NCBI GenBank assembly: GCA_041500405.1
Contig: JBGQMB010000001.1
Location: 9,490-73,489 of the forward strand
Length of the DNA stretch: 64,000 bases
DNA from: Candidatus Micrarchaeia archaeon
GTDB taxonomy: Archaea > Micrarchaeota > Micrarchaeia > Anstonellales > J096
Direction: 5' to 3'
The notes under the pieces were generated by a model. It searched no databases, was not told the origin of the DNA, and saw nothing but the letters and a program-made list of their open reading frames with translations. The position numbers were made by a program, and so were the translations under genes. How positions within the stretch are numbered: the stretch's first letter is position 1; every line of letters starts with the position of its first letter. Below, one piece after another: positions 2,110 through 52,610 of the stretch.

Positions 2110-2982
2110 TTGATGGACCCAGTTTCATACAGGGAATACCTTTCGCAGTACACTGATCCGGACGTTCTTCTGGACACGCTGGAGAGTTTGCGGAAGACAT
2201 TCAGGGTCAACACGCTCAAGTGCTCGGAAGAAAAGTTTCTTTCCTTTACTGAAATGAAGATGGAGAAGGAGCCCCTGCCCCTTGCGTACAGCATGGGCGC
2301 GGATTTTCCAATAGGCAACACGCTGGAGTTTTTCTCGGGCATGATTCATACGCAGACCCTTTCATCAATGCTCCCGCCGCTTGTTCTGGAGCCCAAGCCG
2401 CACGAAAAGGTGCTTGACATGGCGGCAGCCCCCGGCGGAAAGACAACCCAGATGAGCGCCATGATGAAAAACACGGGAATAATAATCGCGAATGACGTAA
2501 AGATAGGCAGGCTGAGCGTCCTTGTCGGCAACATGCGGAGGCTTGGCGCGCTCAACATAACTGTCACAAGGGGCGACGCAAGGCGCCTTGATTACAAAAA
2601 TGAGTTTGACAGGGTTTTGCTCGACGCCCCGTGCTCGTCCATGGGTTCGTCCCTTTCGTCTTTCAGGACATTGGACAGGGACAGGCTAAGGGATATGGCA
2701 AGGGTGCAAAGGAAACTGGCAATCGCGGGCTTTGACGCGCTCAAGCCAAACGGGGCAATGGTGTATTCCACGTGCACGTTTTCAAAGGAGGAGAACGAGG
2801 AAATAGTGAAATTCCTTCTTGAGAGCAGGCCAAGCGCAAGGCTGGAAAAAATAAGCATGGACATGCCCCACGACGGCGGGCTTTCCGAATACGGGGCGGA
2901 ATTTAAAAAAGTTTGGCGCATCCAACCGCACCACTTAAAAAGCGAAGGCTTCTTTATAGCGAGGATAAGCAAGGGCCCTTAG
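2110..2982 (+). CDS. NOL1/NOP2/Sun-family RNA cytosine-C5 methyltransferase
   Basis: DMAAAPGGKTTQM SAM-binding motif, DAPCSSMG (Pro-Cys motif) and YSTCTF (second catalytic Cys motif) characteristic of RsmB/NSUN enzymes. 290 aa. Confidence 0.8.
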   Translation: MMDPVSYREYLSQYTDPDVLLDTLESLRKTFRVNTLKCSEEKFLSFTEMKMEKEPLPLAYSMGADFPIGNTLEFFSGMIHTQTLSSMLPPLVLEPKPHEKVLDMAAAPGGKTTQMSAMMKNTGIIIANDVKIGRLSVLVGNMRRLGALNITVTRGDARRLDYKNEFDRVLLDAPCSSMGSSLSSFRTLDRDRLRDMARVQRKLAIAGFDALKPNGAMVYSTCTFSKEENEEIVKFLLESRPSARLEKISMDMPHDGGLSEYGAEFKKVWRIQPHHLKSEGFFIARISKGP

Positions 2983-3044
2983 ATCAGCGGTAGATCGCTC
3001 CCCTCGCACGGGAGAGGCCAGGGGTTCAAATCCCCTAGGGTCCA
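2973..3044 (+). tRNA. tRNA-Ala (anticodon CGC)
   Basis: Hand-folded cloverleaf: acceptor GGGCCCT/AGGGTCC with the G3:U70 Ala identity pair, D-arm GATC-AGCGGTA-GATC, anticodon arm CTCCC-CTCGCAC-GGGAG (anticodon CGC), T-arm AGGGG-TTCAAAT-CCCCT, discriminator A. No encoded CCA. The 5-prime end overlaps the last 10 nt of the preceding CDS. Confidence 0.9.
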
Positions 3045-3111
3045 AGTCCTTTCTTTTAGAAAAAGAAAGCACTTGGGGAAAGAAAACTACTTCTGTAAAA
3101 AAGAAAGGGCT

Positions 3112-3212
3112 TGGGGATACGGGGATTTGAACCCCGACCTACAGGTTTCTTCTAATCGCGCGTCCGCGCAAAACCTGGAGCCTGCCGTGCTACCTGGTTG
3201 CACTATACCCCC
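3112..3212 (-). tRNA. tRNA-Trp (anticodon CCA) with 28-nt intron after position 37
   Basis: Reverse complement folds as acceptor GGGGGTA/TATCCCC, D-arm GTGC-AACCAGGTA-GCAC, anticodon stem GCAGG/CCTGT with loop CTCCA(G) interrupted by GTTTTGCGCGGACGCGCGATTAGAAGAA, T-arm CGGGG-TTCAAAT-CCCCG, discriminator A. An intron at the canonical 37/38 site is typical of archaeal tRNA-Trp. Confidence 0.85.
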
Positions 3213-3237
3213 AACAGGTGGTATATGGGCAGAGAAA

Positions 3238-3247
3238 CGTTTAAATT
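3238..3247 (-). promoter_or_regulatory. TATA box for tRNA-Trp
   Basis: ACGTTTAAAT (palindromic TTTAAA core) centred about 30 nt upstream of the tRNA-Trp 5-prime end at 3212. Confidence 0.45.
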
Positions 3248-3348
3248 GCTACCTCAGGATAATCCAGTATGCGTAATACATCCTTATTTTTGTCGGTATG
3301 GACAACACTGGCATGGAAGAGGAAAGAATGACAATGGATTAGATTAGC

Positions 3349-4545
3349 ATGGTTAATTCGGCAAAAGGCAATAACGGCAAAATCAATCCGACAGTAATAA
3401 AGCTCGGTGTGGTCAGTTTCCTGACCGACATTTCCAGCGAGATGGTCTTTCCCAACATAGCGCTCTTCCTTACGCTTGTGCTTGGCGCGGGCAAGGAGCT
3501 GGTCGGCCTGGTTGAGGGCGTCGCGGACAGCGCCGCGAGCATCGTCGAGATATTCTCCGGCTACTTTTCAGACAAGCTCGGAAAAAGGAAGCAGTTCGTA
3601 CTGTTTGGATACGGCCTTTCCTCAATAGTCAAGATAGGCATCGCGCTTTCCACCACCTGGTGGATGGTCCTAATAATGCGCGGGCTGGAGCGCGTAGGCA
3701 AGGGCATACGGACTGCGCCAAGGGACGCGATAATCGCCGCATCTGCAGAAAAGCAAATCCGCGGCAGGGCATTCGGCCTGCACCGCGCGATGGACACTGC
3801 AGGCGCGATAATAGGCCCGCTGCTGGCGTTCGCGCTGCTCTCTGCATTCGGCACGAACGAAACAGGGTTCCGCACCACATTCCTGATAGCGATAATACCC
3901 GCGGTCCTGGCGGTTGCCGTGATAGCGCTGTTCGTGCGCGAGCCCAAGGTTGCAACAGCCCCGGCCCCTTTGAAAAGGCCGTCCTTCTGGGATGTGCTGA
4001 AGCAAATGCCGCATGGATACAAGACGTTCCTTAAAGTTTCGCTGCTGTTCTCGCTCTCCTATTTCAGCTTTTCGTTCTTCATATTGCGCGCAGCCGACAT
4101 AGGCGTGGATCCCAAGGATGTCCTGCTGCTCTATGTTTTCTATAATGTCATATACGCGCTTGCGTCTGTGCCAGGCGGGTGGCTGTCCGACAGGATAGGG
4201 CGCAAGCCGGTGATTGCAGGCGCGTTCGCGCTCTATGCTATCATTTGCGCTGGCTTTGCCTTGGCTACCACCTGGTGGCACGCGGCGCTGCTGTTCGGGC
4301 TTTACGGCATCTTCGTGGCTTTGGACGAGAGCGTGAACAAGGCATACATCAGCGACATGATACCCGAGGAAAGGCGCAGCACAGCGATAGGCGCGTATAA
4401 CACGGCCATAGGCGTCGCATATCTTCCGGCAAGCATAATGGTCGGCGCATTGTGGACCGTTGCCGGGCCGGTTACCGGCTTTATGGCAGCAGCGGGCATA
4501 GCGGCATTTTCGGCAGTGGCCCTGATGGCCTTTGTCAGGGGCTGA
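3349..4545 (+). CDS. MFS-family transporter
   Basis: 398 aa with about 12 hydrophobic segments. Conserved MFS loop motif GYFSDKLGKRK between TM2 and TM3, repeated in the second half (GGWLSDRIGRK). Confidence 0.8.
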   Translation: MVNSAKGNNGKINPTVIKLGVVSFLTDISSEMVFPNIALFLTLVLGAGKELVGLVEGVADSAASIVEIFSGYFSDKLGKRKQFVLFGYGLSSIVKIGIALSTTWWMVLIMRGLERVGKGIRTAPRDAIIAASAEKQIRGRAFGLHRAMDTAGAIIGPLLAFALLSAFGTNETGFRTTFLIAIIPAVLAVAVIALFVREPKVATAPAPLKRPSFWDVLKQMPHGYKTFLKVSLLFSLSYFSFSFFILRAADIGVDPKDVLLLYVFYNVIYALASVPGGWLSDRIGRKPVIAGAFALYAIICAGFALATTWWHAALLFGLYGIFVALDESVNKAYISDMIPEERRSTAIGAYNTAIGVAYLPASIMVGALWTVAGPVTGFMAAAGIAAFSAVALMAFVRG

Positions 4546-4548
4546 AAT

Positions 4549-5574
4549 TCAAATTTTCCTTGACCCGTTTTTTGTTTCGGTTTTTGCTTTCAGAAGTTGC
4601 GCAGCTACAGGGAAATAGTCCACCTTGTGCTCTTCATAGACATGGAGCATTTCGTAATCCCCGGCAACATCGCCGAAGCGGTTCATGAAGTCCCCCATCA
4701 TGGACCGGAAATCCCTTTCGTCGCTAACCTCTGCCTCTATTTCCAAGTCCCATTCGCCGAAGCAGCCCACGAAATAGACGACTTCCGGTCTCAATGCGCA
4801 GAATGAATAGATAGTTTTCTCGTCCTTTTCCCCAAGGGATTTTGCGCTGACGATTGCCTTGTAGAATTTCCTGCCTGTTTTCTCCAGGTCCATGATTGTG
4901 CGGTATGCCTGTATTATGCCGTCTTTCTCAAGCTTCCTTATTCTCTCCTTTACCGCCCCATCGCTCATGCCAATTGTCTGCCCAAGTTCGCGGTTTGGCA
5001 GCCGGGCATTCCTGCCAAGGAGCTCCAGCAGCCGCAGGTTAGTTTCGTCCAGCTTGTATGGCCCGTACTCAAAGCCATAGACGAACGTTTCAGGGGGCAT
5101 TTCCCTTTCTTCTCCTGTGAGATAGGTCCTCTTGAAGTGGTAGTTGAACGTTGAGGGCGAAACAGAATAGCTTTTCAGCCGCTCGCCAAGCTCAGCCTTG
5201 ATTTTTCTTAGGATGTTGCTGAAATCAACCGGGTTCCTTGCCGCCAGGAGAATCTCCAGGTCCCACCTGCCGCTTGTGCTTGCCACCCACATGGACGGCA
5301 CCTCGCCCTTGAGATATTCTATTATCTTCGGATAGTCTGACGGAGGGGCTTTCTGCAGCCGCAGATAGAGCCTGTATGAGTAATATCCGAGCTTATGCAG
5401 ATTGATCAGGGCAGTGAAACCCTTTATCACCCCGGCTTCAGTCAGCTTATTGAGCCGGTATTTGGCGAGTTGAGGCGAAATCCCGACCTTTTTGGCAAGG
5501 ACAGCAAGGGGAATCCGGGCATTGAAGTCCAGTTCGGCGAGCATCCGGAAGTCCTTCTTATCGAGCTTTTCCAT
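4549..5574 (-). CDS. Lrp/AsnC-family transcriptional regulator, tandem (two HTH plus two RAM domains in one polypeptide)
   Basis: Two repeats of the Lrp architecture: LDKKDFRMLAELDFNARIPLAVLAKKVGISPQLAKYRLNKLTEAGVIKGF and LDETNLRLLELLGRNARLPNRELGQTIGMSDGAVKERIRKLEKDGIIQAY, each followed by a RAM-like segment. Start moved to MEKLDKK (5574); the upstream 44 aa of the track ORF read through an AT-rich promoter region. Confidence 0.7.
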   Translation of the reverse strand: MEKLDKKDFRMLAELDFNARIPLAVLAKKVGISPQLAKYRLNKLTEAGVIKGFTALINLHKLGYYSYRLYLRLQKAPPSDYPKIIEYLKGEVPSMWVASTSGRWDLEILLAARNPVDFSNILRKIKAELGERLKSYSVSPSTFNYHFKRTYLTGEEREMPPETFVYGFEYGPYKLDETNLRLLELLGRNARLPNRELGQTIGMSDGAVKERIRKLEKDGIIQAYRTIMDLEKTGRKFYKAIVSAKSLGEKDEKTIYSFCALRPEVVYFVGCFGEWDLEIEAEVSDERDFRSMMGDFMNRFGDVAGDYEMLHVYEEHKVDYFPVAAQLLKAKTETKNGSRKI

Positions 5575-5695
5575 GCTTGTTTTATATTTAGTAGTTTTTA
5601 TAAGCTTTTCTACTTTTTCTAAAAAAATAGGACTATATTGTTTTATATATATCAAAAGCCACGTATAGACACAGGTAAACACAAATGAGGCGATT

Positions 5696-6223
5696 ATGAT
5701 GACCATGAATACCCGGATGCTGGCTTTGAAAGCTGAACGCCTGGAAAAAAAGACGAGAAAATTTGGGATGTCGCATCATTCGATGCTCTTCAATGAACCA
5801 CTCGTAGAGTTGAAGCGGGACCTACAGATAAGGCAGGGTATGAAGGATAGCTTTGAGGCTGTCAAAACAAAAGTTTCCCCGGTCGATACAGGTGTAGATA
5901 ACGGAGTATGTAAAGGTAAAGGACTTGAGTTCTGGCTGAAAAATTCCCCGACGGGGATTGCCCTTTGCAATGCCTTACCAAAGCAGGCTACCATTCTGGG
6001 GAGTGTTTTAAGTGCTATCCTGGTTGCAGAAATGGCAATATGGTCTATTGTTCCGGAAGCTGTACAAACAATTACAGGCATATATGGAGTTCCAACCAAG
6101 TTACTCTGGTTCTATGAAAATTTTCCTCCAATAGTAGTAACATGCCTTTTTGGGATGTTCACCTCGGCTTTTGCTGGGTGTACAGCCGCAGCGTTCCGTG
6201 ACGAAGCGATAAGAGACAAATAA
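5696..6223 (+). CDS. hypothetical membrane protein sharing its N-terminal 25 aa with the next gene
   Basis: 175 aa. N-terminus MMTMNTRMLALKAERLEKKTRKFGM. Two C-terminal hydrophobic helices (ATILGSVLSAILVAEMAIWSIV; PPIVVTCLFGMFTSAFAGCTAAAF). Strong extended SD GAGGCGAT 5 nt upstream. Confidence 0.5.
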   Translation: MMTMNTRMLALKAERLEKKTRKFGMSHHSMLFNEPLVELKRDLQIRQGMKDSFEAVKTKVSPVDTGVDNGVCKGKGLEFWLKNSPTGIALCNALPKQATILGSVLSAILVAEMAIWSIVPEAVQTITGIYGVPTKLLWFYENFPPIVVTCLFGMFTSAFAGCTAAAFRDEAIRDK

Positions 6224-42503: not shown

Positions 42504-42734
42504 TTACTTCTTTCCCTTTTTCGGCTTTTTCTTGGCCTTTGGCTTTGCCGCCGGCTTTATGGGAACGATGACGTCCTCACTTTGTTCCTCCTTCGGGGGC
42601 GCCTTTTCCTCGCCAATCATGTCCCTCTCAACATCCTCGTTCTTCTCGAATTCAGTGACGTCGTCGGGCTCGAGCTTGATTTCGCTTGGCTCCTTTTTCC
42701 CGAAAAGCGACTTGAACCATTCTATCAGTCCCAT
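42504..42734 (-). CDS. small acidic/Lys-rich hypothetical protein upstream of the GTPase
   Basis: 76 aa. C-terminal PAAKPKAKKKPKKGKK. Ends 2 nt before the GTPase start, so likely co-transcribed. Confidence 0.4.
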   Translation of the reverse strand: MGLIEWFKSLFGKKEPSEIKLEPDDVTEFEKNEDVERDMIGEEKAPPKEEQSEDVIVPIKPAAKPKAKKKPKKGKK

Positions 42735-42816: not shown

Positions 42817-43176
42817 TTGGCGCATTGGGGTTGCATGCAGAAAGAGAATCCTTTGGCTGGGCCGGAACCAGTGAAAAAGGAGATAATGGCCGCGCTTTCA
42901 ACGGTCATAGACCCGGAAATCGGCATAGACATCGTCAACCTGGGTCTGGTTTACGGCGTTGAGGTTGATTTAAAGAACAGCAAGGCAACGGTCCGCTTGA
43001 CAATGACAACGCCGGCCTGCCCGCTCATGGGCGTCATCCTTTCTGACATCGAAAAGGCGCTCGGCGAAGTCAAGTCAGTGAAGGACATAATAGTCAAGCT
43101 TGTCTGGGACCCGCCATGGGACCAAAACAGGATGAGCGAAAGGGCGAAGATGATGCTTGGCGCGCCGAAACCCTAG
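42817..43176 (+). CDS. MIP18/DUF59-family Fe-S cluster assembly protein
   Basis: IMAALSTVIDPEIGIDIVNLGLVYGVEVD...TMTTPACPLMGVI is the DUF59 signature with the conserved Cys. Start may be an internal Met. Confidence 0.7.
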   Translation: MAHWGCMQKENPLAGPEPVKKEIMAALSTVIDPEIGIDIVNLGLVYGVEVDLKNSKATVRLTMTTPACPLMGVILSDIEKALGEVKSVKDIIVKLVWDPPWDQNRMSERAKMMLGAPKP

Positions 43177-43769
43177 ACGCGCTTGAACGCAATGAGCCCG
43201 CCCTGGACCCTTGCAAACCTGTAATTGAGGATTAAGTATTTTTTCTGGATAAGGCTTCCGCCGCTTTCTATATTCGCCCTTATGTCGCCTTCAGGAAGCT
43301 CGCCGCACATGCCGACCGCGTACTCAAGCCCGTTCCTTTTTGCCTCCCTTTCCCTTTCCTCTATGAGCATCTCTATTATGCCCTTGCCCTGGTACTCGTT
43401 CAGCACCGCGGTCTCCTCCATGTAAAGCGCGTTTGCGGCCTGGCCGGTGTCAAGCGTCTTTTCAGACCTGTCGAAAAACACGGGCCACGCAAGGCCAACC
43501 CCGACTATGAACTTCTCCACGCACGCGCCGTAGCTGTGGCCTTCGGCAATGATGTCCTTTATCTGCTTCACTTCCCTTGTCCCTATCTCGAAAAGGGCGC
43601 TTCTCATCAGCTTGACGACCTCCTCAAGGTCTTCCTCATCAAGGCGCTTTATCTCGGCGCTTTCGTTGCTCGCTATTTCCAGGTCCTCAAGCAGCGCCCT
43701 CCTTTTCAGCGCGGACGGCGGGGCAAGCGCCTTGTGCCTTTCCTCCTTTTCCTTCTCCTGCTGGACCAT
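43173..43769 (-). CDS. GNAT-family N-acetyltransferase
   Basis: Acetyl-CoA-binding motif NEYQGKGIIEMLIEEREREAKRNG (Q/RxxGxG/A pattern) and GNAT beta-strands. Acidic N-terminal extension. Confidence 0.55.
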   Translation of the reverse strand: MVQQEKEKEERHKALAPPSALKRRALLEDLEIASNESAEIKRLDEEDLEEVVKLMRSALFEIGTREVKQIKDIIAEGHSYGACVEKFIVGVGLAWPVFFDRSEKTLDTGQAANALYMEETAVLNEYQGKGIIEMLIEEREREAKRNGLEYAVGMCGELPEGDIRANIESGGSLIQKKYLILNYRFARVQGGLIAFKRV

Positions 43770-43821
43770 GTTTTTTTGTGGAACTGTTTTGTTTTAAAAC
43801 GTTGCCCTGCCCCAAACTATC

Positions 43822-44475
43822 ATGAAGGAGATTTTTCCCGGCGTCTTTGCGGACGGAAGGAGGATATTCACCATAAACGCAGTGCCGGGCAAGAGCGTGT
43901 ACGGGGAAAAGCTCGTCCGCCAGGGAAGCGTCGAGTTCCGCGAGTGGGACCCTTTCAGGAGCAAGCTGTGCGGGGCGCTCAGGAAGGGGCTGAAGACATT
44001 CCCGTTTTCCAGGACCAGCAAGGTCCTTTACCTTGGCGCGTCAACCGGAACGACTGTAAGTCACCTTTCAGACATTGCGGAAGAAGGGGAAATCTACGCG
44101 GTTGAGATGGCGCCGGTAATGGGCGAAAGGCTGATGGAACTGGCTGAAAAAAGGCAGAACATAGTGCCCATAATCGCCGATGCAAGGAAGCCGGACGAGT
44201 ATGCGGAAATACCTGAAGTTGACGTCGTGTACCAGGACGTGGCCCAGCCGGACCAGGACAGGATTCTTGCGATAAACGCAAGGCAGTTCCTGAAAAAGGG
44301 CGGAATTGCGATGCTGTGCGTTAAGAGCCAGAGCATAGACGTGACAATGGACCCGAAGAAGGTGTTTGCGATGGTTGAAAAGTCCCTTTCTTCTGATTTT
44401 GAGATAGTTGAAAAGTTTTATTTGGAGCCGTATGACAAGGAGCACGAGTTCCTTGTGCTGAGGCTGAAGGGATAG
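43822..44475 (+). CDS. flpA: fibrillarin-like rRNA/tRNA 2-prime-O-methyltransferase
   Basis: EFREWDPFRSKLCGAL and VLYLGASTGTTVSHLSDI (SAM motif I). 217 aa. Canonical archaeal fibrillarin. Confidence 0.9.
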   Translation: MKEIFPGVFADGRRIFTINAVPGKSVYGEKLVRQGSVEFREWDPFRSKLCGALRKGLKTFPFSRTSKVLYLGASTGTTVSHLSDIAEEGEIYAVEMAPVMGERLMELAEKRQNIVPIIADARKPDEYAEIPEVDVVYQDVAQPDQDRILAINARQFLKKGGIAMLCVKSQSIDVTMDPKKVFAMVEKSLSSDFEIVEKFYLEPYDKEHEFLVLRLKG

Positions 44476-44516
44476 AGCAGTTCCATTAAAAAACCCCTTT
44501 ATCCACAAATAAGCAC

Positions 44517-46235
44517 ATGAAAAGGCTGCTGTACCGCGCGCGTCACCATCCCATAGGCGCAGCCAACCATCCGCCGGCACAAACCCAGGAGCCAGCAATA
44601 GAATCCCCTGCAAGCATGTTGAAGGAGAGGGTATCCGCGCTCCTGCAAAAGGTCATGTCCAGCCCGCGTTATGACCAAAGGATGCAGCCTATTGTCAACG
44701 ACATAATCCAGCTGGAGTGCAAGTTCGGGAATGAAAAGGACGGATACGACAACAGCAACAGGGTGAAGATAGACTCGCTGGAGGAGCTTTCCCTGCTCAT
44801 GGAAAGCGGCGCGCTCGGAAAGCACCTTGCGCCAATCCTGGCTGAACTGCACAGCAAGCTCATTTCTGCGGCAATTGAGGCAGGCAAATGCTTTTACGCG
44901 CGCAATTTCATGGAGTCAAAAAGGAACGTCTCAACATCGCTGTTCTGGGCCCTGAAGCAGCTAAGGAGGCTGTCCCAGGCTCCGGAGTTTTCCGGGACAG
45001 ACGCAATGCTTGCCGAAAAGGCCACAATGAGGACAGATTTCGGCAACATCATGTTCAGCTATTCAATTTTGAAATCGATGCTTGGCAACAGGAACCTGGA
45101 CAAGCTTAAGGAAAGCAGGAACGCATTCGACAACACATTCATTTCCATAACAGATGCCGCAAAAGAGGCAGTGAAAAAGGCATACCGCAGGCAGGACCCG
45201 GGCCAGCTGTATGCATGGATAGAGAGGATTGCGGGCAGCCCCAATTTCGGCCCTGACACCGTCCCGGCGCTGGTCATGGTGCTCAACGACATCGGCATCG
45301 GATACAGCGTCGCTGCAAAGTCCATGAACCCGGAAAGCGCCACAAAGGCCGCGGCCTCGATTTCCGAACTGGGCCTCCTTATCAATTCCCCGAACTATGA
45401 CCGCCACGCTGAGCTGGCGCTGCGCAATGTTGCAATAACCGGCGAGCGCATGCTTGCCTCAGACACTGTCAATGCGATGTACTCTGTTTTCATTAACAAA
45501 AACCTGCCGGAAGAAGCGCGCCGCACTGTATTTTTCATATCAACCAAGTGCCCGCCAAAGCACCTGATGCGCGCCTATAATGCAGCATCCCGCCTTTTCA
45601 AGATAGGAAAGTTCCAGGGCAGGGTAGGCTCCGCGATAGCGAGTGCCGCATCGGCGATAGAGGACCAGGACCTTGCAGACTTCCTGGATTCCATTGCAAA
45701 TGCAGTATGCAGCGATCCAGGCATCAAGCCAAGGATGGTGGCCCCGCTTTGCAGCGTAATACTGGGCTGCGTGCATGACGAAAAGACCAGGGAGGAATGC
45801 CTGGGCCTGTTTTCCAAAATCGCAAACCACAAGAACATGAAAGGCAGGATGGTCCGCGTACTGGACATGGCCGCTTCGGAAAGGGGGGAGGACCTTTATC
45901 CTGCCCTTGCCTCGCTTTATTCGCTTATCAACAGCAACCCGTTCAGCAACAAGTTTTCGGTCATGGCGGAAAAGGCGGCGTCATTGGCGAAAGAGGGCGC
46001 AGTGTCGGACTCGCTTGACATGCTTGGCATCATGCTGAAAAACGAGATGATAGGGATAAGGCGGCTTGACAGGGACCTTTTGTCGGCTTCGTGCGCAATC
46101 GCCAACCATGCGTCGCTTGCAAGGCACGGGGGCATGCGCCAGGGCACAGTTGCTGACGCGCTCAAGAAGCTTGGCAGAGGGTTTTCCAAGGAAGACCTGC
46201 TCTGGACGGCAGAAGCGCTTCCCTCGTTCAAGTGA
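44517..46235 (+). CDS. hypothetical alpha-helical repeat protein (paralog family member)
   Basis: 572 aa, all-helical. Shares the motif PDTVP...IGxGYSVAAK with the genes at 47185 and 51566. Confidence 0.45.
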   Translation: MKRLLYRARHHPIGAANHPPAQTQEPAIESPASMLKERVSALLQKVMSSPRYDQRMQPIVNDIIQLECKFGNEKDGYDNSNRVKIDSLEELSLLMESGALGKHLAPILAELHSKLISAAIEAGKCFYARNFMESKRNVSTSLFWALKQLRRLSQAPEFSGTDAMLAEKATMRTDFGNIMFSYSILKSMLGNRNLDKLKESRNAFDNTFISITDAAKEAVKKAYRRQDPGQLYAWIERIAGSPNFGPDTVPALVMVLNDIGIGYSVAAKSMNPESATKAAASISELGLLINSPNYDRHAELALRNVAITGERMLASDTVNAMYSVFINKNLPEEARRTVFFISTKCPPKHLMRAYNAASRLFKIGKFQGRVGSAIASAASAIEDQDLADFLDSIANAVCSDPGIKPRMVAPLCSVILGCVHDEKTREECLGLFSKIANHKNMKGRMVRVLDMAASERGEDLYPALASLYSLINSNPFSNKFSVMAEKAASLAKEGAVSDSLDMLGIMLKNEMIGIRRLDRDLLSASCAIANHASLARHGGMRQGTVADALKKLGRGFSKEDLLWTAEALPSFK

Positions 46236-46300
46236 ACTATTTCCACCTTTTGTCACTAGTGCAAACCAATAAAAACCCTTAGCAGCAATAATATATATTT

Positions 46301-47101
46301 ATGGATACCAAAAATGCCACCGGAAGCGGACAAGGGCACAAGGATCCCCAGCCCGGCCGCACTGCCGCACATGAGCCATTGGAAAGCGGAACCGGCGAGC
46401 ACAACTTTTTTGCTCAATTGTGCAGCAAGCTTTCAAAAGACCGCCAGGCAGTCTCATTCATAACCGCCCTTTCAAGAAGCATAACCCCGGCCATGCCGAA
46501 CTATGAGCTGCTGGCCAAAGGCAAAAGCGCCTCAAACGCCCTGGTCCTTCTTGCAAAGCGCATAGCCGAAATCTATAGGGACAGCCCGCCCCACGGCAGC
46601 ATGGCGTCACAGGCCGCGCTCAGGGCGATTTGCGGGCCAAGGCTTGACGAAGGCTCGCTGTCCCTTCTGCTTTCAGCGGCGCTCCGCTCTTCAGAGATGC
46701 ACACAGGCCTTTGCATCAACACCATAAGCGACATGGCGGAGAAGGGAATCCTGTCGTGCGCAGGCGTCGGGGGCACCCTGGATTCATTTGTCATACGCAC
46801 CGATGCGAACGAGGTTTATCCGTTCCTCCTGGTGTCGGATGCCGCGCTTTCCAACCCGCACATGCCTCAAGGGAGCATTACCATAGCCGTGCTTTCTGAC
46901 ATCCATGATGCAGTCTCGGCATTCTGCCGCAATTCCCCCGGCAGCAGCTTGCCGATAGAGGTGCTCAACATGGCGGCATATCTTGAAATCATGTCGTTCC
47001 AAGTGCACACGCACGCCGATTCCCCTGCCCATGAGCCGTCTGCAGCTGCCGGCGAAAATGCCATCAAGCAGATGATAAAGATGATGCAGGGCAAGCCATA
47101 G
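46301..47101 (+). CDS. hypothetical helical protein
   Basis: 266 aa, Ala/Leu/Ser-rich helices. No family recognised. Confidence 0.4.
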   Translation: MDTKNATGSGQGHKDPQPGRTAAHEPLESGTGEHNFFAQLCSKLSKDRQAVSFITALSRSITPAMPNYELLAKGKSASNALVLLAKRIAEIYRDSPPHGSMASQAALRAICGPRLDEGSLSLLLSAALRSSEMHTGLCINTISDMAEKGILSCAGVGGTLDSFVIRTDANEVYPFLLVSDAALSNPHMPQGSITIAVLSDIHDAVSAFCRNSPGSSLPIEVLNMAAYLEIMSFQVHTHADSPAHEPSAAAGENAIKQMIKMMQGKP

Positions 47102-47184
47102 GCGCCCCGAATCGCATTATTCTCTTTGTGTTTAAATATAAGCGCAAGTGTAGCATTATTAAACTGTTTGCTGCGCAATAAAAC

Positions 47185-47907
47185 ATGGTAAAATCCTGCT
47201 CCCTAGCATATGCCGCCAGCAGAAACTGCAATGGCTGCGCAGCGGGGCAGGGCAATGAATTTTTCAGCAGTTACAAATGGTTTTGCTCCCCTGACATGAC
47301 TTCTTACAAAAAGCAAAGGGCGGCGGCAGGCATCCGCATGACATCAAGGTCGCTTTGCAGAATTGCAGATGGCAGTGCCCAGCTATCGGCCAATCACTCC
47401 CTGATGAAGCTGATAGGCGAAGAAAAGTTTGACCCGTCAATCCTTCCTTTTATGAACAGGCTCGTCTCGAATGGCCGCCTTTCAGGATTTTATACCGCGA
47501 TTTCCATAAACTGTTTCAGGGATATATGCGCAACCGGAAGATTCGAGAGGTCAATGCTGCCTTTCTTTGATTGCATGCTCCGCAAAAAAGGGAAGAATGA
47601 CATGTACCTTGCGGTCGAATCCGTGCGCGCGCTTTTCCGCAACCCGGATTTTGACAAAGGATGGCTCACGCAGGACAACTACGCCATTATATTGAGGATA
47701 ATCGGCGCCATGGCCCAGAAACCGGATTCGGACACTGTGCCTTATCCATTCTACAGCTTCACTTCCCTGATAGGCAGCAGGGGATTCTCGGTTGCTGAGC
47801 TTCCCAAGGTGCATGACGGCATGCAAAACCTGAACGGCATTGCGATGGCGGCGTATTTTTACAGTCTTGAGAAGGAGCGGCATCCAAACGCCGAGCCGAA
47901 AACCTAA
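47185..47907 (+). CDS. hypothetical helical protein (paralog family member)
   Basis: 240 aa. DSDTVPYPFYSFTSLIGSRGFSVAEL resembles GPDTVPALVMVLNDIGIGYSVAAK of the 44517 gene. Start uncertain. Confidence 0.4.
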   Translation: MVKSCSLAYAASRNCNGCAAGQGNEFFSSYKWFCSPDMTSYKKQRAAAGIRMTSRSLCRIADGSAQLSANHSLMKLIGEEKFDPSILPFMNRLVSNGRLSGFYTAISINCFRDICATGRFERSMLPFFDCMLRKKGKNDMYLAVESVRALFRNPDFDKGWLTQDNYAIILRIIGAMAQKPDSDTVPYPFYSFTSLIGSRGFSVAELPKVHDGMQNLNGIAMAAYFYSLEKERHPNAEPKT

Positions 47908-47960
47908 AAAATCAGGGCATGGGTCAATAGCTTTTAATCTTATCCCGCAGTAATAAGCGC

Positions 47961-49787
47961 ATGGCCCAGCAGGGCGATCTAAATTGGGGCTCGGCGCTTG
48001 CAATCGTTGCATTAGTGTCCATCATCGCAATCGTGGCTTACGTATTTTTCGCGCATGGCCCAAGGGAGATTGTGATGGGCGGAAGGACGCCGCTCCTGAA
48101 TTCCGCGATAAGCTTTTACATCCTCAATGGCGACGGGAGCAAGGGCGCGCTTGCAGGCAGCACAACAACGGATGAGGACGGCATTTATGTCACTGCAATC
48201 AACGCGTCGCCCAATGATTTCCTTCTCATTGAGGCAACAAACGGCTCGTATGCCAAGGACACAGCCAACACAAGGCCGCTCAAGCCATCGCAAAGCCTGG
48301 CAACAGCAGTGTCCGCGTCAAACTCCAGCACTTGGGCAGCAATAACGCCTCTCACGCACATGGCAGCAGCAAGGGCAAGGGCGCTCGCGGCAGGAGGGAC
48401 GCCATTGTCGACAGCCGTTGTGTCATCAAACATTGGCGTTGCGCGGCAGTATGGCCTTGCTGACATAATATCAAACCAGCCTGTTCCTGTTGACGACGAG
48501 GAATGGGCCGCGCGCGCGAACATTGACGAACGGCAATATTCTCTTGTCATTGCGGGCATCTCAGAAGAGGCGGAAGACCTCAATATGGACGCCGTGGGTT
48601 TTGCGGACGCGCTTGCAAAGGACGCGAGCGACGGCCTGCTTGACGGCAAAGAGAACGGAGAGCCGATAACAATGGAGTCATTGTCAGGCGGGACAATGAG
48701 GCTTGACGCGAATGCCGGGACAGAAGGCGTGCAGGACGGCATTGCCAGCGCGCAGGTCGCACCAAACCTTGCGCCCAACCAGGCAAATGCCCAAGTGCCG
48801 CTCCAGCCAGTCCAGCTCGGCATAAACGGGGCAGGGAAATTTTACATAACATCAACAATGCTTCCTGCTGCCATAGCGCAAACACAATATAATTTTCAGT
48901 TAACTGCACAAGGGGGAACTACCCCTTACACGTGTTCATTGGCAGGAAGGAATGCGGACAACACGGTTTCGGCTTTGCCGAATTGGCTCTTGCTTGGAAA
49001 CGATTGCACGCTTTACGGCGGCGTTCCTTTGCTTGCAGGCGGAACAACGATGTCAATTTCACAGCCGTTCACAATAGCAATGTGCGATTCCGCAAACTCG
49101 TGCGAAAACCTGGAGCTGCGCATAACGACAATAGGGCAGAAGCCGGAGATAACGACATATATCGCCAAGTGCTTTATTAATGAATTCTGCAACCAGAACA
49201 TCGCAACAGCGCAAGGAGGGATAACGCCGTATTATTTCAGGTCCGACTATCTCAGGAACGGCGCGTCGCCGCTCGGCACAATCGTGGACCTGAACGGCAA
49301 CATCCGCGGGACGCCAACGGAGATGGGGACGTTTGACGTCGGCGTTTGCGCAATAGACAGCATAGGCGCATACTCCTGCGATACAGCCGAAGTCAGGGTT
49401 ATTTCGCGGAACGTTACGCTTTATCTTACGAAAACTGGCACCGGCACAGGCAAGGTCTACTCGAACCCCTTCAATGACGACAACATCTTTTCGTACGGCG
49501 TGACGCTCACGCTCACGGCAACCCCGAACAGCGATTCCGAGTTCACGGGATGGGGCGGCGCGTGCAGCGGAACAGGGACATGCAGGCTACTGATGGACGG
49601 GGACAAGGAAATCACTGCGGAGTTCACCCAGACAGAGGAGGAGCCTACGCCGAACCCCAATCCGCCGGACACATGCGGAAGCGGATATCACATCAGCAAC
49701 TGCGGAAACGGCCAGACGCGCTGCTGCCGCAGCGGCTGGGAGTGCTGCAACAGCGGCAACTGCGCGCCGGCTGTCTGGTGCGGCTGA
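47961..49787 (+). CDS. membrane-anchored adhesin-like surface protein with Ig-like/InlB-B-repeat-like domains and Cys-rich C-terminal module
   Basis: 608 aa. N-terminal TM LAIVALVSIIAIVAYVFF. Repeats with GGTTPYTCSL / GGITPYYF (putative-Ig GxTPY motif). YGVTLTLTATPNSDSEFTGWGGAC (divergent InlB B-repeat-like). C-terminal CGSGYHISNCGNGQTRCCRSGWECCNSGNCAPAVWCG. Confidence 0.55.
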   Translation: MAQQGDLNWGSALAIVALVSIIAIVAYVFFAHGPREIVMGGRTPLLNSAISFYILNGDGSKGALAGSTTTDEDGIYVTAINASPNDFLLIEATNGSYAKDTANTRPLKPSQSLATAVSASNSSTWAAITPLTHMAAARARALAAGGTPLSTAVVSSNIGVARQYGLADIISNQPVPVDDEEWAARANIDERQYSLVIAGISEEAEDLNMDAVGFADALAKDASDGLLDGKENGEPITMESLSGGTMRLDANAGTEGVQDGIASAQVAPNLAPNQANAQVPLQPVQLGINGAGKFYITSTMLPAAIAQTQYNFQLTAQGGTTPYTCSLAGRNADNTVSALPNWLLLGNDCTLYGGVPLLAGGTTMSISQPFTIAMCDSANSCENLELRITTIGQKPEITTYIAKCFINEFCNQNIATAQGGITPYYFRSDYLRNGASPLGTIVDLNGNIRGTPTEMGTFDVGVCAIDSIGAYSCDTAEVRVISRNVTLYLTKTGTGTGKVYSNPFNDDNIFSYGVTLTLTATPNSDSEFTGWGGACSGTGTCRLLMDGDKEITAEFTQTEEEPTPNPNPPDTCGSGYHISNCGNGQTRCCRSGWECCNSGNCAPAVWCG

Positions 49788-49864
49788 GGCGTTTTCTTAG
49801 GCGGGCGCCTTGCATTTTGCCTCATATTTATAAATTAAGCGAGCCAAATGCCATTGTGGTCAAA

Positions 49865-50713
49865 ATGGAAAAAATACACATCGCTTTTGCAATGTTAGCG
49901 TTGCTTCTGTTCTCTTTCGGGTGCACAAGCCTGATGAGCGACACTCAAAGCTTGGTTGGCGGCGACAGCGGGCGCACGTCATCCACTATAGGCGTTTCGG
50001 AAGACTTGAGCTACAAGTCGGCGCCAAGCGCATCAGACGGCGCTGTCCAGGACGCAATGGTCATAAAGACCGGCTCTGCGCAGATAGAGGTGCCTGAGAA
50101 CACGCTTTCGGCAAGGTACGAAAGCCTAAAGGCTATGGCTGTCCAATATGGCGGCTCAATCTCGTACTCAAGCTACTATGAGAGCGAATCCGGCAAGACG
50201 CAGTATGTCACCGTGAAAGTGAACTCGGAAAAATTTGACGAGTTTACGGGAAGGCTCTCCGAGATAGGGACAGTCAAGAGCTTCTCCAGCAACACGGACG
50301 ACGTCACGCAGGAGTACATCGACACGACCGCGAAGCTCAGCAACCTGATAGCCTCAAGGGACAGGCTGCTTGCGCTGTACAACACGACGGGAAACCTGAG
50401 CGACATACTGATGCTCGAGCAGGCGATTGAGAACGTGCAGTACCAGATAGACTCCGCGACGCAGCAGAAGCTGTACTACGAGAGGCAGTCCGCGAAGGCG
50501 AGCGTGAGCATAACTCTTTCCGAGCCGCTTCCGGTCGTCGACACCACGATTCTGGACCCGCTTTCGCAGCTTGCGAACCTGTTCATCGGCAGCCTCATTG
50601 TCGGCGTGACGCTTATCGTCATTGGCGCCGGCTTCGTGATACCGATAGCCATAGCGCTGTTCGTGCTCTGGAAGATATGCGCGTGGCTCTGGACCAAGCT
50701 CAAGAAGAAATGA
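49865..50713 (+). CDS. DUF4349-like lipoprotein with C-terminal TM anchor
   Basis: MEKIHIAFAMLALLLFSFGC signal/lipobox. Central helical domain (LSNLIASRDRLLALYN...LEQAIENVQYQIDSATQQKLYYERQSAKASVSITL) resembling DUF4349. C-terminal TM. Start chosen at internal Met 49865. Confidence 0.5.
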   Translation: MEKIHIAFAMLALLLFSFGCTSLMSDTQSLVGGDSGRTSSTIGVSEDLSYKSAPSASDGAVQDAMVIKTGSAQIEVPENTLSARYESLKAMAVQYGGSISYSSYYESESGKTQYVTVKVNSEKFDEFTGRLSEIGTVKSFSSNTDDVTQEYIDTTAKLSNLIASRDRLLALYNTTGNLSDILMLEQAIENVQYQIDSATQQKLYYERQSAKASVSITLSEPLPVVDTTILDPLSQLANLFIGSLIVGVTLIVIGAGFVIPIAIALFVLWKICAWLWTKLKKK

Positions 50714-50781
50714 TTTTGTTTTTTAATTTCTTTTTTCGTTTTTCCGAATGATTTTTATATTTATCCATCAAAAATAACAGT

Positions 50782-51564
50782 ATGGCCGAAAAGAGCGTCC
50801 AGGCCCAAACGGGAAAGCCGGAAGGGAAGCGGATTCACGCCGGCATAATTGAGCAGTCCGCAGTCTCAATGAAGGACATCGTCGAAGCCATAAGGACCGC
50901 CATTTCCTTTTCCGACGACCGCGGCATTCCGCTGCCAAACGAGCTGACGCTTCCGCAAAAGCAAAAGGACGCGATAATGGGCTTTGTGGAATCGCTTGCA
51001 AAGGACCCTGCAAGGGACAGCGACCTTGTCTCGTTCGCAGTCGCAATAAGCCGCATATGCAATTCTTGCTCGTACAATGAAGAAAGGCTGGCCACGCTCA
51101 ATACGTTGGCGATGCTGGTCTCCGGGGAGAGGTTCAAGGAGCTCTCAAAGGAAACGGTCGGCATAGTCCACAAGGTGGCGCTCAACCCGCTGAACAGCGG
51201 CATAAAGGACTCAATCTTGGTGTCGCTTGCCAGCTTGATTGACAGCCCGGACTTCAGTGGCGGGCTTCTGCCGGCCCTGCACATCATTTCAGAGCAAACA
51301 GACGGCGCGCACATGGTAATGTCGCTGGAGCACATGCTGAGCATATGCCAAAGCAAGCGCTGCACGCCTGCCGTCGAGGCCCTGGTGCTTGAAGTGGCCA
51401 AGAAGACATGGAGCAAGGAGACGGAGCTCTCCCTGTGCTCGCTTTCCCTGCTTGTGGAAAGCAGCAAGGCGTCGGACGCCCTGTTCGCCGGCCTGCGCAA
51501 CGAGATAAGGGACATGCCGGCCTACAGCATAGCGCTCCGCATCAACAACACAAGAGGCGGATAA
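50782..51564 (+). CDS. hypothetical helical protein
   Basis: 260 aa, Ala/Leu/Ser-rich. No family recognised. Confidence 0.4.
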   Translation: MAEKSVQAQTGKPEGKRIHAGIIEQSAVSMKDIVEAIRTAISFSDDRGIPLPNELTLPQKQKDAIMGFVESLAKDPARDSDLVSFAVAISRICNSCSYNEERLATLNTLAMLVSGERFKELSKETVGIVHKVALNPLNSGIKDSILVSLASLIDSPDFSGGLLPALHIISEQTDGAHMVMSLEHMLSICQSKRCTPAVEALVLEVAKKTWSKETELSLCSLSLLVESSKASDALFAGLRNEIRDMPAYSIALRINNTRGG

Positions 51565-51565
51565 G

Positions 51566-52249
51566 ATGGATTCAGTGAAAAGACCGTTAAATAAGCAAGG
51601 CGAACCCGCGAACAACAAGAAGCCGCAGCTTGAGAAGTTCAAGGACAGGTTCCCGAAAGCGAACCTCATATGCAGGCGCCTCGGCGCCAAGATGGACAAC
51701 TTCGACCGCATGACGAGGCTTCCGCAGGAGGACAGGCAGAACATACTGGATTATGCGGCAATGCTTGCAAGCCGCAACAAAAAGGGAAATCTCGGCCTGC
51801 TTGCGAGCACGGTAGACGCAATCTGCAACTACGGCGAGCCGCACGACAGGAGCTACTTTAACCTCGTTTATCTGAACAGGCTACTTGGAAGCCAGCGGTT
51901 CATTGATGCGCCGCGCTTTGTCATGGTTCCTGTTGCAATGATAGCGTGCCAGCCAAGGAACAGGGATCTGCTCTATTTTCACTTGGACTCCATAAGGACG
52001 ATAGCGGACGACAACTTCCTTTCGGCGGCAACCGCGTTGGAGCTGTGCACGATGGCCATGGGAAACACAGGAAACGACCTTTCGATGAAATTCCACGAGC
52101 TCATAATAAGGCTCAGGGCGGAAAGGAAAAAAGAAAACATGAAATCCGGCCGCGAGCTTGGAAAAACGCTAAAGGAAATTGACCACTTTGAAAAGTCCAG
52201 CAGGAATCCGAACCCGCCAATAATGGTCAAGGAAAAGAAGCAGGCGTGA
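51566..52249 (+). CDS. hypothetical helical protein (paralog family member)
   Basis: 227 aa. LNRLLGSQRFIDAPRF resembles FTSLIGSRGFSVAELP of the 47185 gene. Starts 2 nt after the previous gene. Confidence 0.4.
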   Translation: MDSVKRPLNKQGEPANNKKPQLEKFKDRFPKANLICRRLGAKMDNFDRMTRLPQEDRQNILDYAAMLASRNKKGNLGLLASTVDAICNYGEPHDRSYFNLVYLNRLLGSQRFIDAPRFVMVPVAMIACQPRNRDLLYFHLDSIRTIADDNFLSAATALELCTMAMGNTGNDLSMKFHELIIRLRAERKKENMKSGRELGKTLKEIDHFEKSSRNPNPPIMVKEKKQA

Positions 52250-52322: not shown

Positions 52323-52610
52323 ATGAAATTTCCAGGGGAACTAATGAGGTATTGCCCGCACTGCAACGCAAGGACTTTGCACAAGGCGAAGAACGTGTCA
52401 AAGGGCAAGGCAAGCCCGTTCTCGTTCGGAACCATGAAGCACGCAAAGAAGCTCATGGGCCACGGCGGAAAAAGGGCGGGCCAGAAGGAAGTGAAGAAGC
52501 AGGGCAAGAAGCAGAAGGTAATTTTAACGTGCACGGCCTGCAGCAAGAAGCAGGAGTGGGTCTGCCACAAAAGGACCAAGAAAAAGGTGGAAATCGTGAA
52601 GAAACAGTAA
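52323..52610 (+). CDS. rpl44e: ribosomal protein L44e (eL42)
   Basis: MKFPGELMRYCPHCNARTLH...LTCTACSKK: C4 zinc-binding L44e pattern (compare MKMPRRFNTYCPHCN). Confidence 0.85.
   Translation: MKFPGELMRYCPHCNARTLHKAKNVSKGKASPFSFGTMKHAKKLMGHGGKRAGQKEVKKQGKKQKVILTCTACSKKQEWVCHKRTKKKVEIVKKQ

Follow-up and report, generated by a model that had tools for sequence, protein, structure and literature searches.

A putative clade-restricted superfamily of helical-repeat proteins and an interspersed envelope protein pair between flpA and rpl44e of a Micrarchaeota archaeon

The flpA–rpl44e interval

A stretch of 64,000 nucleotides (nt) from a Micrarchaeia archaeon (assembly GCA_041500405.1, contig JBGQMB010000001.1, positions 9,490 to 73,489 of the forward strand), hereafter called the window, carries a 7.7-kb block of uncharacterised genes between the conserved genes flpA and rpl44e. 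The block comprises seven consecutive open reading frames (ORFs) on the plus strand, named g1 to g7 here (Table 1). A preliminary description of the locus had listed the same seven genes, and the ORF list and the public gene calls agree on them; they are also called on a sequence-identical public contig (GCA_041478675.1). The longest ORF of g5 begins at 49550, but the gene calls and the orthologues favour the start given in the table. With moderate confidence, we explain the block as two unrelated modules that are interleaved, namely an array of five helical genes (g1, g2, g3, g6 and g7) and a pair of envelope protein genes (g4 and g5), because the pair was found without helical genes in the related loci L005 and L044, and the array without the pair in L045 (Table 2).

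The nearest relatives of flpA are found in metagenome-assembled genomes of Micrarchaeota, which places the window in a DPANN archaeon. The gene order that begins with rpl44e is retained in L005, L043 and L045 and, within their short contigs, likewise in L042 and L047. The block and the surrounding DNA have the same GC content.

Table 1. Genes and candidate promoter elements of the block and its flanks (positions in the window).
Feature	Position	Strand	Description	Evidence
flpA	43822-44475	+	fibrillarin, conserved upstream flank	Pfam Fibrillarin; 83-85% identity in L005 and L043
A/T octamer ATTAAAAA	44485-44492	+	candidate archaeal TATA box of g1	about 32 nt 5' of the g1 ATG
g1	44517-46235	+	572 residues, probable long member of the helical-repeat superfamily	ORF list, public gene calls
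A/T box	46268-46275		equivalent element of g2	
g2	46301-47101	+	266 residues, weakest-supported member of the superfamily	
A/T box	47155-47162		equivalent element of g3	
g3	47185-47907	+	240 residues, probable helical-repeat family member	
A/T box	47931-47938		equivalent element of g4	
g4	47961-49787	+	608 residues, envelope protein with N-terminal transmembrane anchor	
A/T box	49824-49831		equivalent element of g5	
g5	49865-50713	+	282 residues, DUF4349 envelope protein	
A/T box	50751-50758		equivalent element of g6	
g6	50782-51564	+	260 residues, acidic helical-repeat protein, hub of the superfamily	
g7	51566-52249	+	227 residues, basic paralogue of g6	
rpl44e	52323-52610	+	opens the conserved run rps27e-eIF2alpha-Nop10-PAC2-SBDS-exosome	Pfam families

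Table 2. Gene order in related loci (TM, transmembrane).
Locus	Gene order	Remarks
L005	flpA, g4, g5, methyltransferase-like gene, TM protein, rpl44e	flpA 85% identical; none of the five helical genes
L041	g4, g5, g6, g7, TM protein	
L042	g6, g7, rpl44e	
L043	flpA, g3 orthologue (38% identity), Lipoprotein_15 protein, g4, g5, methyltransferase, TM protein, rpl44e	flpA 83% identical
L044	g4, g5	unrelated context
L045	649, 282, 287, 267, rpl44e	housekeeping proteins 67-78% identical; no g4 or g5
L046, L047	fragments of the L045-type array	L047: g6-like gene, then rpl44e

A probable divergent superfamily of helical proteins

Database searches left the five helical proteins without annotation. Pfam and NCBIfam gave no match beyond noise at E <= 1 for g1, g2, g3, g6 or g7, no family of these two collections recurred across the 16 members of the helical family, PHROGs and PADLOC contained nothing meaningful for g1 to g7, and literature searches returned nothing on the helical families. 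From the window sequences alone, g6 and g7 were the only pair with detectable paralogy (Smith-Waterman z 7.4), and theirs was the sole, borderline hit of all-versus-all blastp and phmmer searches; at the level of families, hhalign linked the two with 95% probability and E 5e-8. For g2, Smith-Waterman z values of 3.5 against g3 and 2.7 against g6 were obtained.

The preliminary description had proposed a rapidly diverging paralogous family of at least three genes (those starting at 44517, 47185 and 51566, i.e. g1, g3 and g7) on account of two shared motifs, PDTVP...IGxxGFSVAxL and L[IL]GS[RQ]xF. These strings do exist in the three proteins, but they carry no statistical significance: compared with 300 shuffles, Smith-Waterman scores remained at chance level (z = 0.7 for g1-g3, 0.1 for g1-g7 and -0.3 for g3-g7), and a leave-one-out motif hidden Markov model (HMM) compared with 1,000 shuffles recovered the left-out instance for g6 only. 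The motif HMM built from hand-picked instances was discarded as evidence, as it recovered only its own seeds and mostly failed the leave-one-out test. In g1, the stretch PDTVP...IGIGYSVA is not conserved in the orthologue, and the family profiles match the protein elsewhere. A rapidly diverging family was nevertheless found, by means of orthologue-based profiles and of evolutionary rates instead of the motifs; it counts five members, and its clear pair within the window, g6-g7, had not been singled out before.

Contigs of relatives were collected through the clusters matched by the g6/g7 profile and through relatives of flpA and g5, and profiles were then searched with hmmsearch against 1,610 ORFs from 45 loci, of which about 1,590 served as decoys. 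In searches with profiles based on orthologues, g1, g2, g3, g6 and g7 all matched one another ahead of every decoy; the best non-self matches were other proteins of helical blocks, and the first decoys appeared at E 0.29-0.48. A profile of the g2/g3 alignment (A5) found g1 at E 5.8e-6 and g6 at 2e-4, the g6/g7 profile found g3 at E 1.6e-3, and the g1 profile found g6 at E 3.9e-3. Profiles built without any window sequence retrieved g1 (5.5e-5), g3 (3e-8), g6 (2e-17) and g7 (1e-6). The one that retrieved g1 combined L045_649, which is collinear with g1 in the alignment, and L046_233, and the next ORF followed at E 0.54. The g3-family profile matched g1 at three sites, 144-196, 318-378 and 419-480 (E 2.7e-5 to 5.8e-6). 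When g2 was omitted from this profile, it ranked 10th of the 1,610 ORFs at E 7.6e-4, with ranks 7-15 all taken by helical-block proteins and the first decoy at 0.47.

Profile-profile comparison by hhalign connected the g3 family with the L045_287 family (E 4e-6), with g2 (E 2.3e-4 over 166 columns) and with the g6 family (E 2e-4), and the g1 family with the g6 family (E 4.5e-4), while the controls g4 and g5 reached E 0.14 at best. Other helical or repeat proteins of the same loci (ankyrin, prefoldin, SBDS) scored nothing in the superfamily profile searches. Because of these profile-profile links and of the matches ahead of the decoys, g1, g2, g3, g6 and g7 very probably form one highly divergent superfamily, with g2 as its least secure member. 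It is worth noting as a point of method that apparent orphans became a family only once syntenic orthologues had been gathered into profiles.

Predicted fold and location of the helical proteins

An AlphaFold2 model of g6 based on a 10-sequence alignment reached a predicted local distance difference test score (pLDDT) of 85.1 and a predicted template modelling score (pTM) of 0.82, and contains 13-14 helices and no strand of three or more residues. It replaced an earlier run on four sequences that was poor (pLDDT 63) and uninformative in the fold search. The hydrophobic periodicity is of the alpha type in g1, g2, g3, g6 and g7, and of the beta type in g4. Foldseek found nothing significant for the g6 model in the PDB (best E 0.12, to DHR79; template modelling score <= 0.38) or among the viral structures of BFVD, and the top matches were mostly designed helical repeats. 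The g6-family sequence profile matched the designed helical repeat 5cwh among PDB sequences at E 1.3e-5, which we read as shared periodicity and not as descent; the g1- and g3-family profiles had no real match in the same collection.

The alpha-solenoid proteins suggested in the preliminary description are compatible with the all-alpha helical-repeat model of g6, but an ARM or HEAT assignment was supported neither by Pfam nor by Foldseek. Like the ARM, HEAT and TPR alpha-solenoids and the designed helical repeats, the g6 model is made up of helices, with no strand of three or more residues, and the helical family shows a recurrent turn motif, h..h..hLxSxxF. In contrast to ARM, HEAT and TPR proteins, however, the family lacks a match to a curated Pfam repeat at E <= 1, and no natural PDB structure matched the g6 model at E < 0.1 or a template modelling score > 0.4.

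Hydrophobic-segment analysis revealed no signal peptide or transmembrane segment in g1, g2, g3, g6 or g7, and the five proteins therefore look cytoplasmic; a location at the surface appears less probable. Their isoelectric points (pI) differ: g1 (9.2), g3 and g7 (9.7) are basic at pI 9.2-9.7, and g6 has a pI of 5.8.

The g6-g7 pair and putative promoters

The start of g7 lies 1 nt past the stop of g6. The contrast between an acidic g6 and a basic g7 is kept in every orthologue pair, and the g7 orthologues share only 48-58% identity, against 96% for rpl44e. The products of g6 and g7 may pair with each other.

A/T boxes (8 of 8 positions A or T, 7 of 8 for g4) are located at -30 to -41 before g1 to g6; reading of the sequence upstream of g7 disclosed no such box. 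We presume that these boxes act as promoters. Since they precede g1 to g6 but not g7, and g6 and g7 are spaced by 1 nt, the arrangement suggests separate leaderless transcripts for g1 to g5 and a g6-g7 bicistron.

Two further features of this region were observed. g1, g3, g4 and g6 have in common an AATAA element located 5-11 nt ahead of their ATG (44506-44516, 47174-47184, 47950-47960 and 50771-50781). The C-terminal tail of g7 (52190-52249), NPxPPI[MI]VK(E)K.QA, is kept in all g7 orthologues, which are about 50% identical overall, and could be a short docking peptide.

The envelope proteins g4 and g5

The preliminary description had recognized a membrane-anchored, adhesin-like protein of 608 residues and a DUF4349-like envelope lipoprotein, and both architectures were confirmed, with the adhesive function of g4 and the lipid modification of g5 remaining putative. 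g4 has a single N-terminal hydrophobic TM anchor (approximately residues 6-35) and 18 cysteines. Its residues 489-558 match Pfam Flg_new_2, the InlB B-repeat (PF18998), with 35.8 bits (cutoff 23.6; E 8e-9), and the orthologues reach 41-90 bits. The Ig domain He_PIG (PF05345) scored 19.3 bits in g4, below the cutoff of 24, and 36.8 bits in the aligned L044 orthologue. Orthologues from L005, L043 and L044 are 53-61% identical to g4, whose ectodomain is conserved.

With the surface proteins that carry InlB B-repeats and He_PIG domains, g4 shares one B-repeat above threshold and a putative Ig-like segment, and with adhesin-like proteins one membrane anchor and an extensive ectodomain that contains cysteines; the latter resemblance is one of architecture. 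It differs from the former in that most of its ectodomain (residues 36-300) matches no family, its anchor is N-terminal and its cysteine-rich C-terminal tip occurs in no other genome of the comparison.

The tip consists of the C-terminal approximately 45 residues (49610-49787), about 10 of them cysteines, and replaces a C-terminal domain of about 120 residues in the orthologues of L005, L043, L044 and L041. It would fit a variable distal binding end. In addition, the B-repeat is duplicated in the L005 copy of g4 (3077-5416), and in the L043 copy a lipobox-like N-terminus takes the place of the TM anchor. A 29-nt stretch of g4 (48595-48623) is 86% identical to one of g6 (50978-51006; GFADALAKD versus GFVESLAKD); as the two proteins are otherwise unrelated, this likeness is probably due to chance.

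g5 matches DUF4349 (PF14257) over nearly the full domain (145 bits, cutoff 27.7, E 2.6e-42; profile positions 2-211 of 213) and has hydrophobic segments at residues 2-25 and 233-279. The N-terminal signal ends at Cys20 (LLFSFGC), a residue that is invariant in the orthologues, with non-canonical lipobox positions -3 and -2 relative to [LVI][ASTVI][GAS]C. An N-terminal hydrophobic signal ending in a cysteine and a C-terminal TM tail have been described for a bacterial DUF4349 candidate (PMC10924467), and g5 resembles it in both respects. Unlike DUF4349 proteins with a lipobox, however, g5 carries no canonical bacterial lipobox in SFGC and no twin-arginine motif; it is archaeal and always paired with the g4 family. 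This pair is kept in L005, L041, L043 and L044, with g5 always directly 3' of g4. Neither blastp, phmmer nor hhalign disclosed a sequence relation of g4 or g5 to the helical genes.

Distribution and evolutionary rates

When the g6/g7 profile was run with HMMER over the complete set of 1.84 billion representatives, only eight clusters were returned, and the closest relative, L005, lacks all five helical genes, so that these are not order-wide single-copy core genes, a possibility raised in the preliminary description. Word-indexed searches retrieved only g1 itself for g1, and two relatives with 73-78% identity for g6. Given that such searches missed known members, even rows of the query alignment, and with an alignment as query returned relatives of its first row only, a self-only result does not equal orphan status.

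Identity to the g6 orthologues amounts to 73-78% for L041 and L042 and to 24-26% for L045 and L047, and in all of these loci except L041 the gene stands just upstream of rpl44e. L045_282 (282 residues) is the g3 orthologue of its array (blastp E 1e-7), and L045_267, P0015 and P0013 are g6/g7-like. In L043, the g3 orthologue (5417-6193, blastp E 7e-59) is the sole helical gene kept. We regard the helical array as an ancestral feature of a Micrarchaeota subclade, in which it lies upstream of rpl44e, and as dispensable, given its loss in L005.

The ratio of nonsynonymous to synonymous substitution rates (dN/dS) amounted to 0.05-0.16 for flpA, rpl44e, rps27e, eIF2alpha, PAC2 and SBDS, to 0.19-0.27 for g4 and g5, to 0.28 for g3 (with dS saturated), to 0.38-0.50 for g6 and to 0.40 for g7. 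At the protein level, the helical genes change 3-7 times as much as their neighbours. Judged by these values, the helical genes appear to be real genes under relaxed purifying selection. Taken together, we describe here a new clade-restricted protein superfamily inside a familiar structural class, with no new mechanism evident.

The slot occupied by g6 and g7 in the window is filled in the two closest relatives, L005 (6451-8106 and 8159-8581) and L043 (10377-11912 and 11978-12400), by genes for a 511-551-residue protein and a 140-residue polytopic membrane protein. The former shows a weak S-adenosylmethionine (SAM) methyltransferase core and a weak PADLOC match to mad2 (E 0.004), and the latter is also found 3' of g7 in L041. 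Ankyrin-repeat proteins occupy other variable slots close to the same conserved genes in L043 (1622-2530 and 3089-3595) and L045 (180-596 and 16524-17102), so that these genomes differ in a second kind of repeat protein as well. The ankyrin slot of L043 is situated between a GTPase gene and an iron-sulfur cluster assembly gene; at this place, the window contains no more than a lysine-rich ORF of 76 residues (42504-42734, minus strand).

Discussion

We propose that the helical genes encode lineage-specific, soluble and probably cytoplasmic all-alpha helical-repeat (alpha-solenoid-like) proteins that would have arisen through tandem duplication 5' of the rpl44e operon. An array of a long form, forms of approximately 280 residues and a g6-like gene, followed by rpl44e, would be older than the split from the relative with 67-78% identical housekeeping proteins. 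Since then its proteins may have drifted to about 20-25% identity under relaxed purifying selection, up to the complete loss of the array in the nearest relative. The acidic g6 and the basic g7 would be a recent duplicate pair with translationally coupled genes, whose proteins probably form a heterodimer. The envelope pair would have been inserted into the array between a g3-type and a g6-type gene; it would consist of the TM-anchored g4, with Ig-like and InlB B-repeat domains and a variable distal tip, and of the DUF4349 protein g5, presumably anchored in the membrane by both termini. As to function, the helical proteins are most likely protein-binding scaffolds or adaptors with fast-changing partners, a reading that we infer from the class of fold and from the way in which these genes have evolved.

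Several observations weigh against this explanation. The cross-family E-values are modest (1e-3 to 1e-6) and were obtained in small databases, and the similarity could in part reflect a convergent periodicity of helical hairpins and not common descent. No orthologue of g2 was found among the collected loci, and a profile built from distant relatives only missed this protein. Internal sequence repeats, whose weakness also distinguishes the family from ARM, HEAT and TPR proteins, were not significant in hhalign self-comparisons (off-diagonal E 0.06-0.13). g6 is the sole modelled member, and the solenoid fold of g1, g2 and g3 is extrapolated from it. Moreover, DPANN archaea may export proteins that lack classical signals, and the function of the helical proteins, their location and the g6-g7 heterodimer are predictions.

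The preliminary description had suggested a single lineage-specific surface or host-interaction module of all seven genes, in which the helical paralogues act together with g4 and g5 at the cell surface. The genes are indeed on the same strand and tightly packed, part of their adjacency recurs in L041 (g4-g5-g6-g7) and L043 (g3 followed at a distance by g4-g5), the adjoining housekeeping genes evolve more slowly than any of the seven, and Micrarchaeota are host-dependent symbionts (PMC8975820, PMC5498576). However, we regard this single module as unlikely. The five helical proteins have neither signal peptide nor TM segment and are unrelated in sequence to g4 and g5, the two groups of genes each occur alone (the pair in L005 and L044, the array in L045), and every gene from g1 to g6 is preceded by a promoter-like box of its own. 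A role of the block in cell-cell or host interaction is speculation.

It is just as improbable, in our judgement, that the helical proteins serve translation, ribosome biogenesis or RNA processing as lineage-specific accessory factors and are tied to the run of rpl44e, rps27e, eIF2alpha, Nop10, SBDS and exosome genes. Alpha-solenoids are widespread among the RNA- and ribosome-assembly factors of eukaryotes, g1, g3 and g7 are basic, and in L042, L045 and L047 a g6-type gene directly precedes rpl44e in the same orientation, as the g6-g7 pair does in the window. Against this stands the finding that L005 has none of the genes and L043 lacks most of them although the operon is intact in both. In addition, dN/dS is 4-6 times that of the adjoining translation genes, the synteny can be explained by descent in a narrow clade, and Pfam scans of the helical family produced no significant match to known RNA-binding repeats.

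There is a rather small chance that the helical array is a fast-evolving repertoire of effectors, acting on the host or passed to it via a contact that is aided by g4 and g5. Tandem duplication, rapid divergence and patchy distribution in a host-dependent organism are shared with the repeat-protein effectors of symbionts, such as ankyrin and TPR expansions, and ankyrin-repeat genes are present in neighbouring slots of L043 and L045. In contrast to those effectors, the helical genes show no sequence relationship with ankyrin or TPR proteins and come without a secretion signal, a known delivery system or evidence of host targeting. If the effector reading were true, the slot between flpA and rpl44e would be a small interaction island whose content follows the host range.

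We consider it very unlikely that the helical genes represent spurious ORFs or orphans without mutual relationship, with the family being an artefact of a common helical composition. The chance-level pairwise similarity of g1, g3 and g7, the mostly failed leave-one-out motif test and the insignificant internal repeats are in line with such an artefact, but the orthologues with dN/dS < 1, the confident model for the g6 family and cross-family matches that outranked every decoy in each of three independent profile searches, in which ankyrin, prefoldin and SBDS proteins scored nothing, speak against it; its spurious-ORF part is already largely refuted. Finally, a mobile, viral or anti-viral defence island is extremely improbable: gene content does differ among close relatives, and the methyltransferase-like gene of L005 and L043 with its weak mad2 match lies in this slot, but g1 to g7 have no meaningful PHROGs or PADLOC match, scans with the g1 and g6/g7 families found no relatives on IMG/VR contigs, the g6 model has no BFVD fold match, there is no integrase and no flanking repeat (the DNA-repeat search gave short, chance-level matches only), GC content equals that of the surroundings, and the array shows vertical synteny with that of L045.

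Like other DPANN archaea, Micrarchaeota need hosts, and hardly any of the proteins behind this dependence are known. The helical superfamily and the separately kept envelope pair are concrete candidates for localisation and interaction work in the few co-cultures available. If the superfamily consists of ordinary cytoplasmic scaffolds, the finding is of local interest only.

Additional observations in the window

The usual operon partner of archaeal flpA is nop5; in its place, a divergently oriented N-acetyltransferase gene precedes flpA in the window (43173-43822). Positions 1-2000 have a GC content of 0.41, compared with 0.49-0.55 elsewhere in the window. Rfam identified a tRNA of 101 nt (56 bits) at 3112-3212 on the minus strand, which was not reported by ARAGORN and adjoins a tRNA-Ala at 2973-3044; its extra length suggests an intron-containing archaeal tRNA.

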